12,669 nucleotides of DNA from a virus (lineage: Duplodnaviria; Heunggongvirae; Uroviricota; Caudoviricetes). This document shows positions 1,886-7,672 of the stretch, in pieces (position 1 is the stretch's first letter; the number at the start of each line of letters is the position of its first letter). The position numbers and the translations under genes are program-made. The notes under the pieces are model-generated. The model did no database searches. It was not told where the DNA came from and worked only from the letters and a program-made list of their open reading frames with translations. The stretch lies in the IMG/VR virus record IMGVR_UViG_638341196_000007; one strand, 5' to 3'.

Positions 1886-4642
1886 TCATTCTTCAGATGA
1901 GTTATAATCTCCTGGCTGGTAATTGAGTACATAAACGTTTATTTGTCGTCCCTGAATACGTGGTGATTTTCTTTGGTATCCACGACCGCTGTTTGGTGGG
2001 GTTAGCATCCCGGCTTTTTTCAACACTTCAGCAAACTGTTTTGCGTTGAAACCACATGCGATCTCCTTTTCAAATGTGGCCGGGAATGTGTAGAAAATCA
2101 TTGGGCTTTCGTCATGTTCTCCACGCTGACGGTATCCGGCTAAATCTTTGATGGGCAAATCTGCCGGGCTGTATGGAAATGGTGCAAAACGGCTAAGCCC
2201 ATAGGCATTAAGAAATGCCTCCGTTTGTTCAATAATCTGCTGATGTTCTTTGTTACCTGTGCCGAACTCGCGCAACCATGCGTTATAGCTGTGCTGTATC
2301 GCATCACGGCATGTCTGAGCATCCCAGCCTGTTACAACCTCGCCTAACAGCAATGCGGCCTCCAGAATGGCAAATCGCGCGGCTACACGGTGAACCTGCT
2401 CACCATAATCGGATGGGATCAGGTTTCTCCATCTGCTTTCGCAATCACGAACGGTTTTAATAGCCTGTTGCTGGTGGTCTGCCAGCCATTTAATCCACTC
2501 ACGCCCGGCTGCGCCGTGGTGATGCTGGTAAGCGTCTTTCAGTGCGTCTGCGTGCTGTTTTCCGTTCTGGTAATCGTGAAAGCGTACTGCTTTACTCAAC
2601 GGAATATTCAGCAGTCGCACCAGTTGCCCGGCTTTGGTTTTTCGCCCGGAAGTAGCGATAAATGTTTCTAAATCCATTTCTCCGGTGCTGATTGCCACTG
2701 TACGCCAGCGTTTTAGATCCCGGTTTCCACCATCTTTAGCGCCTTGCAGTTTCCCTACACCGTTAAATAACGCATAGGCAGACTGTGAAACGCTGACAGG
2801 ATCAGCGCCCTGACCAACTTCATCAAGCGGCATTAGTCCGTCATTGTGGGCGGCGGCCTCATTTGCCAGCCCCAGCGCGGTTCCGTACCACGTCAGCCGC
2901 AGTAAATCAGGGTTGCCGTATAAGCTGCTCGCCACGTTTGCCGTGGTGGTCTTACCTGCGCTCGACTGCTCATAGAAATGAATGCCGAACCCGTCAGCGC
3001 CCACCAGCCCAATCAATGGCGCTGCCAGTGCTGCGCCGATCCCGGTCATCATTGAATAGTTACCAAAGGCCAGACGCGCCACGTTATCACGCCAGCTTTT
3101 CGCGCTCCCTGAGACGGTATATCCGGCTGCGGCTGAGCTTCTCCCGCTGAACAGCACAGGATTTTCAGGTGTTCCGATGATTTCCCCATCAGGCATGATG
3201 TACGCTCCGCATTGCCAGACAGTGGCATGAGCAACACGCCACAATTCACGAGAGCCACTGCGTTGTAGCCAGTCTGCCAGTATTGCTCTGAGGCTGCTTT
3301 TGGTCGTGACATTTACCCCACCAGCTTTAAGTGTGCGCCATCCTTCACGTTCACCAATATCAGCCAGTGGAATGGCAGCGGTTGTCGGCGTTTCAGAACC
3401 AAACGACAGCCAGCGAAGAATGAGATACTGGTCTTTATCGTCTCTGCCAGTACCGATAACGCTTAACGGAGAACATAACCAGCTTTCGTTATTGATGATT
3501 TCTCCACTCTGGCTGTCAGCTCTCGGAGATACCCAATAAATACCATCCTCGCGGCTTTCTATTCTTGGTTTCAGTGGGTCGGTATCCATAACCTTAAAAT
3601 CGCTTCCCTCAATGGTCTGTGGCTCCTGTTTCACGCCATTACCCTGTGGTTGGTACATTGACTTATTGAACGCTTCTGTGGCGCATTTAATGCCGTGTTT
3701 TTGGTGGTAATCATTCCAGTCTGCTTTGTGATCTGTCGGGGGTAATGCCACCCATCCAGAAACAGATAAAGCTGCTTTTTCTGCTGCTATTCTCCCCGTG
3801 TTTTGTCTTCCTTCGCTGTGGTCGTTATCCGCAGCAATGATGATTTGTGCTGAAGGAAATTTATCCCGCAGTACCTGGGCGACATATAACAGGTTCCCGG
3901 CATCAATCGCCGCCACTGTCAGCGCCTCTGGACGAATTAAATGGGCAGATAATGCCGTTGCCAGCCCTTCTGCGATTAAGATGCTCTGTGTTGTTTCTGG
4001 CGCGTTTATGGCGTGATATGCCCCCCGCTTTGCTGAACCTGTCAGGAGTCTTTTTTCACCATGTGATGTAATAGTCTGTGCTGCTGTGACTGCGCCGGAT
4101 TTATCCACCAGCGCCAGCAACAGAGATCCATCGGGCAACACGGGGAATGTAAAATCACCTACCCCTTTCGCAACCAGATAATCAGATTTGCCGTTTACAG
4201 CCTTTCTGCGCATGTCATCAAACTGACGGGAAAACGTATCCCGTCTTTGTTGTTCGTCCTTCTCTGCCCTTTTCAGGCGCTCCTGTTCGCGTCGCTGGCG
4301 CTCGGTTTCCAGTTGTTCCCGTTTCTGGCTGGTGGCTTCTGGTGTTTCCGTTGTCCGGTAATCAATACCCAGAACATCAGCGGCAAGAAGCGCCGCCTCT
4401 GTTGTGTCGCAGTTATTTACGCGTTTAATTAAATCCAGCCCATCACCAGCGCCGCACTGATTACAGATGAAGCTACCGCGCCCGTTGTCATCGAACCGGA
4501 ATCGATCTTTGCCCCCACATGCAGGGCAGGGAGCATGACGGCGCGGAGAGTCAGGGACATTTATGTTCAGGCAGCCCAGCACATGAGGCCAGTTGTTTTC
4601 AGACGCACTGATAACCTGACGGATAAGATCAATGTTTCGCAT
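1886..4642 (-). CDS. DNA primase/helicase of phage-satellite type: N-terminal Zn-ribbon (CPACGG...CNQCG), charged E/R/Q-rich linker, TOPRIM (IIIAADNDH), C-terminal P-loop NTPase (SSAGKTT Walker A-like, LMPLDEVG Walker B-like)
   Basis: 2.75-kb ORF; ATG at 4642-4640 (the ORF track starts at the in-frame GTG 4645-4643); motifs read from the translation; stop TGA 1888-1886. Confidence 0.9.
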   Translation of the reverse strand: MRNIDLIRQVISASENNWPHVLGCLNINVPDSPRRHAPCPACGGKDRFRFDDNGRGSFICNQCGAGDGLDLIKRVNNCDTTEAALLAADVLGIDYRTTETPEATSQKREQLETERQRREQERLKRAEKDEQQRRDTFSRQFDDMRRKAVNGKSDYLVAKGVGDFTFPVLPDGSLLLALVDKSGAVTAAQTITSHGEKRLLTGSAKRGAYHAINAPETTQSILIAEGLATALSAHLIRPEALTVAAIDAGNLLYVAQVLRDKFPSAQIIIAADNDHSEGRQNTGRIAAEKAALSVSGWVALPPTDHKADWNDYHQKHGIKCATEAFNKSMYQPQGNGVKQEPQTIEGSDFKVMDTDPLKPRIESREDGIYWVSPRADSQSGEIINNESWLCSPLSVIGTGRDDKDQYLILRWLSFGSETPTTAAIPLADIGEREGWRTLKAGGVNVTTKSSLRAILADWLQRSGSRELWRVAHATVWQCGAYIMPDGEIIGTPENPVLFSGRSSAAAGYTVSGSAKSWRDNVARLAFGNYSMMTGIGAALAAPLIGLVGADGFGIHFYEQSSAGKTTTANVASSLYGNPDLLRLTWYGTALGLANEAAAHNDGLMPLDEVGQGADPVSVSQSAYALFNGVGKLQGAKDGGNRDLKRWRTVAISTGEMDLETFIATSGRKTKAGQLVRLLNIPLSKAVRFHDYQNGKQHADALKDAYQHHHGAAGREWIKWLADHQQQAIKTVRDCESRWRNLIPSDYGEQVHRVAARFAILEAALLLGEVVTGWDAQTCRDAIQHSYNAWLREFGTGNKEHQQIIEQTEAFLNAYGLSRFAPFPYSPADLPIKDLAGYRQRGEHDESPMIFYTFPATFEKEIACGFNAKQFAEVLKKAGMLTPPNSGRGYQRKSPRIQGRQINVYVLNYQPGDYNSSEE

Positions 4643-5000
4643 CACCGTACCCCACGTGGTCTATAGCGTTTGCGATATGGCTAACCAGCATCTGCCACTT
4701 GGTTATTCCGTAATCAGTCAGCATGCCATCATTGTTTAGCCACATATCAAATTCAGCGGTTGTCGCAAGTTTCCACTTATCGCCGTGGACAGTCCTCATT
4801 GCTGGGTACATGAATGCGCAAATCAGATCACAAACATCTGACGGCTTCAGAGATGTAGTAATGGTGCGTCCCTCTGGCGTCTGAATTGCCATTTTCTCTT
4901 CACCAGTAGAATGAAGGTTATGAATCCACACAGCACCAGCAATCTTTGCCACCGGCTCTCCGATTGCGGAGCTAAGCGCCATTTCTGCATTTTCACGCAT
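4629..5000 (-). CDS. hypothetical protein (123 aa)
   Basis: ATG 5000-4998 with GGGAGG SD; its stop overlaps the primase start by about 14 nt. Confidence 0.55.
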   Translation of the reverse strand: MRENAEMALSSAIGEPVAKIAGAVWIHNLHSTGEEKMAIQTPEGRTITTSLKPSDVCDLICAFMYPAMRTVHGDKWKLATTAEFDMWLNNDGMLTDYGITKWQMLVSHIANAIDHVGYGDAKH

Positions 5001-6823: not shown

Positions 6824-7672
6824 GTGCCACCTCCATGCGGATACGACCAGCAAAAAAGCAGATGTGATCGCGCACCAGAGAACGGCGAGCATCGCGTTCA
6901 GACTCGGCAGCAATATGATGAATTTTGGCGGTAATTGTCGGGCAATCGCGGCGAACTGCGGCGATAATCCAGATAAATTGCGGTTTTTGGGTAGTGGTAG
7001 TAGCCAGCATGTGGCAGCCTCCTTGTACTGGGAGTTCTTCCCACCACCGGAGCTGCGAAACTCGCTGGTGGTGGACTGAACAGAGTTCGCAGTACCGGCG
7101 TACAAGGAAACCGGCCAGCCTTTCGGCTGCCCTGTCCAGCCCACCATAATTTTGCAAGCGACGCGGATTATAACCGCATCACTGAAAAAAGTGTGAGTCT
7201 GGCTAACGGCACAAAAAAAGACGCTCGGCGCGTCATGTGTCGCCTCGTACATTTCCGGGCTGCGAAACCCGGCACCCGTTTTATGAGGTGCCTTATAACC
7301 ATAAACCGTGTTGCCGCATAACGGCAAGCTCTTTTTTATGGACTCCGAAAACTCACTATTGGAAGCACCAGATGCACAATACATCGCGCTCATTTCGTTA
7401 ACGTCGCGCGTGTGGACGAAGGTTTTTGTGGAGTCACTACGCGAGCAGAGAAAGCCATCTACGACCAGAAATTCTCTGGCGCAGCCGCCGACCTTCTCAA
7501 CGCTAACACCATCGACCGTAATTTCTGACATAGTTAAGGCATTCGCTCCCACCACCAGAAAATGATAAACTTTGCTTGTATCTGCTGTATTAATGCCAGA
7601 CTTTGCTGTCATATTGCTGGATTTTGGCGACATACCAGCCAGTGAAAATATCTTCTTCTGGACGGTTAGCAT
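6605..7672 (-). CDS. long open frame (355 codons) starting at a well-coupled ATG (7672); only the 5' part is credibly coding and the 3' extent is unresolved (alternative to the two small-gene calls at 6816-7010 and 6605-6823)
   Basis: ATG 7672-7670 with GGAGGT SD, overlapping the stop of the 60-aa gene (AAATGCTAA); no stop in frame until 6605; the frame runs through the hairpin-dense tract and two SD-bearing small ORFs. Confidence 0.3.
6816..7010 (-). CDS. hypothetical protein (64 aa, [10 protein letters not shown]...)
   Basis: ATG 7010-7008 with AAGGAGG SD 8 nt upstream; its TAA overlaps the next ATG; embedded out of frame in the long 6605-7672 ORF. Confidence 0.4.
   Translation of the reverse strand: MLATTTTQKPQFIWIIAAVRRDCPTITAKIHHIAAESERDARRSLVRDHICFFAGRIRMEVAHD
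7010..7340 (-). promoter_or_regulatory. GC-rich hairpin-dense leader; candidate attenuator / riboregulatory RNA upstream of the small-gene array and primase
   Basis: Series of adjacent perfect stems read directly (7311-7327, 7271-7292, 7255-7272, 7220-7234, 7116-7129, 7041-7074); octamer CTGCGAAA present in two loops; long-range pair CCTTGTAC (7021-7028) / GTACAAGG (7100-7107) partly covers the SD of the 7010 ATG. Confidence 0.3.
7213..7234 (-). terminator. terminator-like hairpin inside the structured tract (GACGC-N5-GCGUC followed by U7 on the minus strand)
   Basis: Plus-strand A7 at 7213-7219 then GACGCTCGGCGCGTC 7220-7234; stem only 5 bp, so weak. Confidence 0.3.

Follow-up and report, generated by a model that had tools for sequence, protein, structure and literature searches.

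Why should a run of eight very small genes, nearly all of them overlapping their neighbours, lead straight into a replication enzyme? The question is raised by IMG/VR virus record IMGVR_UViG_638341196_000007 (Caudoviricetes), a stretch of 12,669 nucleotides (nt) that was analysed whole and is called the window here, in which eight open reading frames (ORFs), O1-O8, precede a primase-helicase gene. We propose that the block forms the early ('left') operon, under immunity control, of a phage-inducible chromosomal island (PICI) of the EcCIMP1 type, gated by RNA, and from the sequence comparisons below we give this reading a probability of roughly 0.7. The architecture is that of an RNA-gated, coupled early operon of the P4/P1/IsrK type, a known kind, in a published PICI family, and its regulatory logic is well supported by comparative evidence. 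By the ORF listing and by reading of the sequence, all genes of the window lie on the minus strand, and O1-O8 together tile 7010-4629 as follows.

7010-6816, minus strand: O1, 64 amino acids (aa)
6823-6605, minus strand: O2, 72 aa; junction O1/O2 ATGATTAA, an 8-nt overlap
6612-6418, minus strand: O3, 64 aa; junction O2/O3 ATGAATAA, an 8-nt overlap
6421-6158, minus strand: O4, 87 aa; junction O3/O4 ATGA
6161-5940, minus strand: O5, 73 aa; junction O4/O5 ATGA
5947-5345, minus strand: O6, 200 aa; junction O5/O6 ATGAATAA, an 8-nt overlap
5334-4993, minus strand: O7, 113 aa; junction O6/O7 a 10-nt gap with GGATGGAG inside
5000-4629, minus strand: O8, 123 aa; junction O7/O8 ATGCGTGA, an 8-nt overlap
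4642 (ATG) to 1886 (end of the stop codon), minus strand: primase-helicase, last cistron of the chain; junction O8/primase a 14-nt overlap

These eight ORFs and their sizes agree exactly with the first-pass annotation of this DNA, which had also described every junction as overlapping or abutting, with a Shine-Dalgarno (SD) sequence inside the upstream gene. An SD-like match to the anti-SD is found at each start (duplex free energy -6.1 to -11.4 kcal/mol), and overlaps of 4-14 nt occur at seven of the eight junctions, the primase junction included; the exception is the 10-nt gap at O6/O7. Tight packing is kept in 18 related elements, whose 77 junctions comprise 63 overlaps of 4 or 8 nt (48 of the ATGA type, 15 of 8 nt) and 14 gaps of 7-16 nt, mostly at O6/O7. 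The arrays range from three to nine cistrons among the related loci, with coupling kept in all.

The RNA elements ahead of O1

The elements that would place this chain under a single control lie directly upstream of O1.

7298..7327, minus strand: promoter-like site, with -35 TTGCCG (7327-7322), an 18-nt spacer and -10 TATGGT (7303-7298)
7214..7291, minus strand: IsrK / P4 SeqA-like leader RNA (Rfam RF01394 isrK, 69 bits against a gathering score of 50), with target copies a1 TTCGCAG and b1 GTACGAGG inside 7291-7214
7234-7220, minus strand: stem of an intrinsic terminator in the IsrK-like leader, followed by a T-run (terminator scan)
7064..7151, minus strand: C4 / P4 CI-like antisense RNA (Rfam RF01695, 81.1 bits against a gathering score of 45, full-length model)
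7011..7063, minus strand: leader between C4 and O1, with the a2 core TTCGCAG (7059-7053) and b2 GTACAAGGAGG (7028-7018)

The predicted minimum-free-energy fold of the C4-like RNA consists of a long closing stem and two hairpins and leaves unpaired the loop b' UUUCCUUGUAC of the second hairpin and the junction segment a' ACUGCGAAC. The SD of O1, GUACAAGGAGG at 7028-7018 (target b2 includes AAGGAGG), is complementary to the loop, and TTCGCAG at 7059-7053 to the junction segment. When 58 related loci were fetched, anchored on the primase N-terminus, the isrK-C4-icd trio was found in about 19, which range over many Enterobacterales genera between Escherichia and Xenorhabdus, with the C4-like RNA at the same position in each. 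Among 14 elements the b':b2 duplex averages -14.3 kcal/mol for cognate partners against -5.6 (standard deviation (sd) 2.6) for non-cognate ones, the cognate partner ranks first, alone or in a tie, in 12 of 14 rows (b':b2) and in all 14 (a':a2), and both pairings covary through about ten specificities. Because loop and target change together across loci, there is strong comparative evidence that the C4-like RNA pairs with the ribosome-binding site of O1. The arrangement is thus that of a C4/CI-clan RNA just upstream of the cistrons it would regulate and on the same strand, with one copy of its targets upstream and a second downstream, over the ribosome-binding site of the first ORF. The IsrK-like stretch, for its part, ranks as the second-best duplex partner among 5784 windows scanned with the unpaired C4 loop region only (a scan with the whole C4 is dominated by self-complementary segments). 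The hexamers of the promoter-like site and an A-tract upstream of them are kept in most of 14 related loci, with a variable spacer sequence, and we infer an analogue of P4 PLE or PisrK with a transcription start near 7291.

The cistron behind this ribosome-binding site heads the array in nearly all related elements. The first-pass annotation had found a recognisable motif in none of the eight products; profile searches overturn this for O1, which scores 70.4 bits (E 1e-19, cutoff 25) against NCBIfam NF033153 (host cell division inhibitor Icd-like), and leave O2-O8 without a named family. O1 is a basic protein of 64 aa (isoelectric point (pI) 9.5) that also aligns at 40% identity (BLASTP, E 2e-10) with residues 74-130 of the P4 'cI ORF', a region corresponding to the 65-aa Kil. 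RefSeq annotates it as 'Icd-like' or hides it under a 355-aa 'ash family protein'. On these matches O1 is an Icd-like protein and homologue of P4 Kil, and, by analogy with P1 Icd, which binds FtsZ and inhibits division (PMC11897509), it probably arrests cell division.

Two side observations concern this module. In a related locus of E. coli 03_3469 (L005, 1500-2402) nearly identical O3-O8 stand behind a C4 of different specificity, with b' UAUCCAUUCGAG and matching targets; judged from the sequence, the immunity module is swapped there, and the long ORF over the RNAs continues into the O3 frame for 418 codons. The isrK-C4-icd module of about 300 nt, taken alone, is matched in 2410 of 5426 E. 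coli genomes, is far commoner than the downstream array, and includes among its matches 345 plasmid places, annotated 'ash family protein' / 'Icd-like'.

The island, its upstream chain and a model for the switch

The first-pass annotation had placed the array in a satellite, feeding a primase, and this context is upheld, the window being 98% identical to the validated PICI EcCIMP1. EcCIMP1 is a 20-kb PICI of E. coli MP1 described by Pick, Stadel and Raivio (ISME J 2025; PMC11773190); it is excised and transduced only with the P22-like helper vB_EcoP_Kapi1, its helper-induced master regulator alpA is essential for excision and transfer, and it adds superinfection immunity against Kapi1 (PMC11773190). 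The small ORFs are listed in that paper as hypothetical proteins and an 'Ash family protein', without analysis of the ORFs or RNAs (PMC11773190). Both elements integrate at the tRNA-Thr gene next to proA; window positions 4-9309 share 98.2% nucleotide identity with EcCIMP1, O1-O8 share 92-100% protein identity, and the C4 RNA, the primase and the P22-like DUF2824 and ejection-protein genes are the same. They differ between int and alpA, where the window has a DUF6387 gene and EcCIMP1 another short segment, and in AlpA, which is only 76% identical. The gene order of the island is int, DUF6387, alpA, a 143-aa ORF, antA, DUF4222, 'ash'/Icd-like, six hypothetical proteins, primase, DUF2824 and ejection proteins; as read from gene content, int, alpA and primase have one orientation and the attachment site is fixed, as in Gram-negative PICIs, which are islands of about 10-20 kb. 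By sequence the window is a variant of EcCIMP1, a Gram-negative PICI, helper-dependent transfer having been shown for EcCIMP1, its 98% identical relative. A P4-like satellite, defined (sensu Moura de Sousa and Rocha) by psu, sid, delta, epsilon, alpha, alpA and int, was rejected: the scanned ORFs of the window and the full EcCIMP1 annotation gave no match to Psu, Sid, delta or epsilon, and the primase is of the Toprim plus DUF927 kind. Its domains are a zinc ribbon, Toprim and DUF927 (Pfam PF08273, PF13362 and PF06048), and it matches phrog_1139 with E 4e-176.

Upstream of O1 the chain consists of the following genes.

9315-9118, minus strand: alpA (Pfam)
9118-8687, minus strand: 143-aa ORF; junction with alpA TAATG
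8674-7841, minus strand: antA (Pfam); junction with the 143-aa ORF a 12-nt gap
7848-7666, minus strand: DUF4222 gene (Pfam); junction with antA ATGTTTAA
6605..7672, minus strand: long 'Ash family' / P4 eta-like ORF, 355 codons; junction with DUF4222 ATGCTAA

The coupled chain had earlier been taken to begin at 7010. The alpA/143-aa ORF, antA/DUF4222 and DUF4222/long ORF junctions overlap, which makes alpA the first gene of the chain that ends in the primase. The long ORF, whose start overlaps the DUF4222 stop, extends over both RNAs with their targets and then over O1, there in the +1 frame, before closing with the stop codon of O2; its match to Pfam Phage_ASH (PF10554), residues 124-232 or 7303-6977, coincides with the isrK and C4 genes. 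An open frame of 237-411 codons lies over the RNAs in all 18-19 related loci. In 13 of these C4 is 54 or 57 nt from the icd ATG and the long frame is the icd frame, which is the eta/kil layout of P4; in five or six, the window included, the spacing is 53 nt and the long frame is the +1 frame, stop-free across icd and ending as the next gene. Upstream of O1 the long ORF is almost neutral (ratio of nonsynonymous to synonymous polymorphism, pN/pS, 0.5-0.8), the frame nevertheless being open, which fits the idea that translation itself is what matters. O2 is at once a cistron with an SD (GGAGG) and a start of its own, the ATG overlapping the stop of O1, and the C-terminal end of the long ORF; homologues follow icd in Pluralibacter (39% identity) and Symbiopectobacterium (45%), and it is never separately annotated in the RefSeq records inspected. 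The Prokaryotic Genome Annotation Pipeline (PGAP) renders the same DNA as one 355-aa 'ash family protein' or as an ash pseudogene with a 64-aa Icd-like protein (L001, L002, L065). This points to a recurring annotation problem, in which the Pfam 'Ash' domain lies on two non-coding RNA genes and RefSeq annotates the same DNA in three ways. In the P4 locus itself (L064, 8171-8584) PF10554 hits the old 'cI ORF' (eta/kil frame) and not epsilon, whose own match is to PF25738. In one survey of P4-like satellites PF10554 served as the marker for epsilon.

By analogy, this layout matches those of P4 immunity and P1 immI. In P4, CI RNA pairs with seqA and seqC and thereby brings about premature termination in the left operon, whose last gene is the primase alpha; the CI gene is overlapped by the long Eta ORF, of which Kil forms the end, and Eta, coupled to an upstream alpA homologue, prevents termination through its translation (PMC10111431; PMC4825925). 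The Rfam C4 and isrK models detect relatives of CI and seqA in Gram-negative PICIs (PMC10111431). With the P4 left operon (PLE/PLL, seqA, CI RNA, seqC, kil/eta, epsilon, orf151, cnr, alpha) the window element shares a C4/CI-clan antisense RNA between two target copies, a Kil-like first cistron, a long ORF over the RNA gene coupled to an upstream alpA/vis-like operon, and small ORFs followed by a primase. It differs in lacking sid, delta, psu and epsilon, in a DUF927-type rather than an alpha-type primase, in the intrinsic terminator of its leader, in a long ORF that passes kil/icd in another frame and has the next gene as its end, and in small ORFs unrelated to epsilon/orf151 whose similarity to Cnr is at most marginal. 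With immI of P1/P7 (c4 RNA, icd, ant1/2) it shares the pairing of C4 a'/b' with a2/b2 at the icd ribosome-binding site, icd as lead cistron, which in P1 is required for downstream gene expression, and specificity variants that covary as between P1 and P7; the cargo of immI, however, is an antirepressor, whereas that of the window is seven small ORFs and a primase, with antA upstream of the RNAs. The isrK-orf45-anrP operon of Salmonella Gifsy-1 has a leader RNA of the same Rfam family, with a leaky terminator, and a short lead ORF heading the downstream genes. Read-through of that terminator yields an mRNA in which the lead ORF is coupled to the downstream gene, a control by translational coupling shown by stop-codon insertion; in contrast to our reading of the window, the short RNA activates translation there, and the cargo is an antirepressor (PMC4825925).

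We propose the following model for the operon. In the quiescent island transcription would start from the internal promoter-like site at the IsrK/SeqA-like leader, and read-through past the leader terminator would yield the C4/CI-like antisense RNA. The C4 loop would then pair with the 11 nt containing the O1 SD, and the second segment of C4 just upstream, decoy copies of both targets being carried by the IsrK-like leader. Blocking the O1 ribosome-binding site would leave the whole message untranslated, because each later cistron has its start at the stop of the one before or no more than 10 nt from it; the stop/start overlaps suggest that the downstream genes depend on O1 translation. The untranslated, C-rich and G-poor O1 region would be exposed to Rho-dependent termination, and O1 mRNA is one of the two stretches of the operon in which C exceeds G the most (+10 to +14, where the window averages -2.9), which is suggestive only of a Rho utilization (rut)-like site. 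O2-O8 and the primase would thereby stay off and the island quiescent, as expected from P4 immunity, P1 immI and Gifsy-1 IsrK. In the induced state the helper phage would induce alpA, as shown for EcCIMP1, and transcription would enter from upstream, allowing ribosomes to pass alpA, antA and DUF4222 into the 355-codon Ash/eta-like ORF. Translation of the long ORF across terminator, C4 and targets would melt the RNA structures, in the manner of P4 Eta, and expression would be carried through to the primase. This model explains the tight coupling, as one RNA-controlled ribosome-binding site can gate at least nine cistrons ending in the replication enzyme of a widespread E. coli satellite, and would provide the published EcCIMP1 with a concrete immunity mechanism. 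Furthermore, the roughly ten covarying RNA-target specificities could be used for typing islands.

Several points weigh against the model. The intrinsic terminator of the IsrK-like leader lies upstream of C4, and the model has to assume where the C4 RNA comes from, be it read-through or a processed transcript of the alpA operon. The short IsrK RNA of Gifsy-1 activates, so the sign of the leader could differ here. The rut-like C-rich stretch over O1 is only about 2 sd above the window mean. The association of spacing with an open +1 frame, five loci against 13, rests largely on a TTA Leu versus an ATT Ile codon and may mark one clade rather than repeated selection. Finally, our preference for host-directed functions of O2-O8, set out below, rests solely on their occurrence in autonomous phages.

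Candidate roles of O2-O8

The main remaining interest lies in the functions of O2-O8, which form a short list of candidate genes for the superinfection-immunity phenotype of EcCIMP1, and a further one in the frame-shifted eta-like ORF over icd. All seven proteins are acidic (pI 4.2-5.6), and RefSeq labels O3-O8 hypothetical proteins. O2-O8 match no Pfam, NCBIfam or PADLOC family, matches of the small products to TY-Chap1, PTPS and CARF being rejected as sub-threshold noise, and none matches the P4 epsilon family PF25738 (Derepression) in Pfam at E <=0.1, where the P4 epsilon control gives E 9e-51. None of the eight products matches Psu, Sid or a PADLOC defence model, sequence-profile searches of the PDB gave no match, and a Foldseek search of BFVD with O7 returned nothing at E <=0.001. 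O5, O6 and O7 do match PHROGs of unknown function (for O5, phrog_20558 with E 3e-9 and phrog_2196 with E 2e-4), and databases hold 550 homologues of O6 and 130 of O7, all without a name. Among the related loci O6 and O7 are widespread (27-85% identity), O4 and O5 patchy, and O2, O3 and O8 rare. Eight related elements have an O4 homologue (48-54% identity), in many cases immediately behind icd, and 12 loci one of O5 (33-47%); O3, acidic and hydrophobic-helical, is found outside Escherichia only in one locus (L015, 61% identity), and O8 is confined to Escherichia, where the UMNK88-type variant lacks it. Some variants are without O7 and O8, and others pair O5-O6-O7 with a P4-type primase. Protein conservation reaches over large distances for O5, O6 and O7 (pN/pS 0.08-0.31); among E. 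coli variants the short ORFs show too few substitutions for the ratio to inform.

AlphaFold2 (AF2) models are confident for O7 (predicted local distance difference test (pLDDT) score 93) and moderate for O6 (72). O7 is predicted as a compact alpha/beta domain of helix, beta-hairpin, helix, helix, mini-hairpin and helix, and O6, with a net charge of -21, as an N-terminal beta-sheet plus helices followed by an O7-like domain in its C-terminal half (O6-C), which repeats this order of elements. The O6 and O7 families align by hhalign with E 0.008, and O7 aligns with O8 by BLASTP (E 4e-4 over 97 aa) and hhalign (E 1e-3 over 90 columns, probability 21%); O6-C and O7 are probable paralogues, and O8 is a possible distant paralogue of O7. 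Natural fusions (P0372, P0404, P0406 set) join an O6-like to an O7-like part (336 aa), an ORF6N/Bro-type N-terminus to an O7-like part (314 aa), and a primase N-terminal fragment to an O7-like part (190 aa), the last of which may be a gene-call chimera. Homologues of O6 and O7 are also carried by autonomous temperate phages (phiP27, Stx phages, Klebsiella phages and phi467), where they lie in the early-left region, between repressor and xis-int and not adjoining a primase; in phi467 an ORF6N gene stands between them. These phages have no helper, and both a helper-specific and a primase-accessory reading of O6/O7 are weakened by the occurrences. The distribution points to a general early function, host-directed or anti-defence, and we regard such 'takeover' functions as somewhat more likely for O2-O8 than helper-specific ones.

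The first-pass annotation had suggested effectors acting on the helper, and we retain this only as a tentative option, namely that O2-O8 serve mainly against Kapi1 or its relatives by derepression, packaging redirection or interference. The place of the array corresponds to that of epsilon and orf151 in the left operon of P4, the superinfection immunity against Kapi1 is without an assigned gene, all seven proteins are small, acidic and binder-like, and the mosaic, lineage-variable array, with its rare O2, O3 and O8, is typical of genes in partner conflict. Set against this are the lack of any epsilon 'Derepression' or PADLOC match among the products, the homologues of O6 and O7 in early-left operons of helper-less autonomous phages, and the presence of a Kapi1-like prophage in only two of 21 EcCIMP1 strains.

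A rather doubtful pair of proposals, which we score jointly, goes beyond the general host-directed reading. First, O6-C, O7 and possibly O8 may constitute an undescribed acidic alpha/beta domain family of early operons in PICIs and temperate phages, without a counterpart in solved or viral predicted structures and sometimes fused to Bro-network ORF6N or to O6, which could lie behind the superinfection immunity of EcCIMP1 or act as an anti-defence or host-takeover binder. Second, the eta-like Ash ORF may be translated out of frame across the whole of icd, terminating as O2, and this dual-coding stretch may be kept so that ribosomes override the RNA switch.

It is unlikely that O6, O7 and O8 are replication accessory proteins or primase regulators comparable to P4 Cnr (ORF106, DUF5375), encoded upstream of alpha. 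They do immediately precede the primase, O5-O6-O7-primase is an order kept with both DUF927-type and P4-type primases, and 90% of P4-like elements have cnr-family genes between epsilon and alpha. A weak hhalign match links the O6 family to DUF5375 (PF17345; E 0.0028, probability 11%), and three O6-family members carry faint precomputed DUF5375 matches in the source database; hmmscan, however, found no DUF5375 in 64 O6-family members, and the O7 family is not significant against it (hhalign, E 0.12), so that the link of O6 to Cnr/DUF5375 is marginal by sequence and that of O7 absent. Moreover, the homologues in phiP27, KPP5665-2 and phi467 are not beside any primase, and the UMNK88 variant keeps a related primase without O7 and O8.

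Still less probable is that several of the small ORFs, O2, O3 and O8 especially, are mainly translated spacers without a protein function of their own, which carry ribosomes from O1 to the primase and prevent Rho polarity. The very narrow distribution of these three genes, the coupling kept in arrays of every length, and a long ORF that is near-neutral yet open, suggesting that translation itself is selectable, would all suit such a role. The protein conservation of O5, O6 and O7 and the confident fold of O7 speak against it, O2 remains recognisable in other genera, and a shorter operon, as in the UMNK88 variant, gives the same coupling.

That the array is a product of chance or annotation is effectively refuted, and the array is confirmed as real genes: although O2 is without separate annotation and the O1 region is annotated differently between records, complete ORFs of >=60 aa cover 99.6% of the strand against a mean of 34% (sd 13%, maximum 75%) in 500 dinucleotide shuffles, each start has an SD, O6 and O7 have hundreds of homologues, substitution patterns show purifying selection, and PGAP calls O3-O8 as coding sequences in each inspected record that carries them.

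Other features of the island

The block, or parts of it, is found on the chromosome in 568 of 5426 complete E. coli genomes, the site of the island being the tRNA-Thr gene beside proA. The sole segment of the window that diverges from EcCIMP1, 9310-10560, contains the DUF6387 gene (293 aa, acidic) and the divergent alpA. Downstream of the primase, window positions 1-1091 hold the DUF2824 gene and a gene for a P22 gp7-like ejection protein; further ejection-protein genes are present in the full island, and these correspond to EcCIMP1_017-019 and are common to the helper Kapi1.

Directly downstream of the primase stop lies an AT-rich, iteron-like array (1716-1860) of five direct GTTGGTTCA(A/G) copies at alternating 21/11-nt spacing, with three inverted copies at 1828-1860, which is a candidate replication origin of the island. 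An int-alpA RNA (RF02996, 46.7 bits against a gathering score of 35.8) is found at 10409-10476 on the minus strand, just downstream of the integrase gene and upstream of DUF6387 and alpA, and is kept in most related loci.

Two occurrences fall outside the expected hosts. An island of the Enterobacterales type (L020; primase 67% identical, C4 84.8 bits) is present in an assembly labelled Chryseobacterium sp., and OM284015.1, 'Elizabethkingia phage EKP1', carries homologues of O6 and O7, that of O7 being 64% identical. These may reflect contamination, mislabelling or unusually wide transfer.

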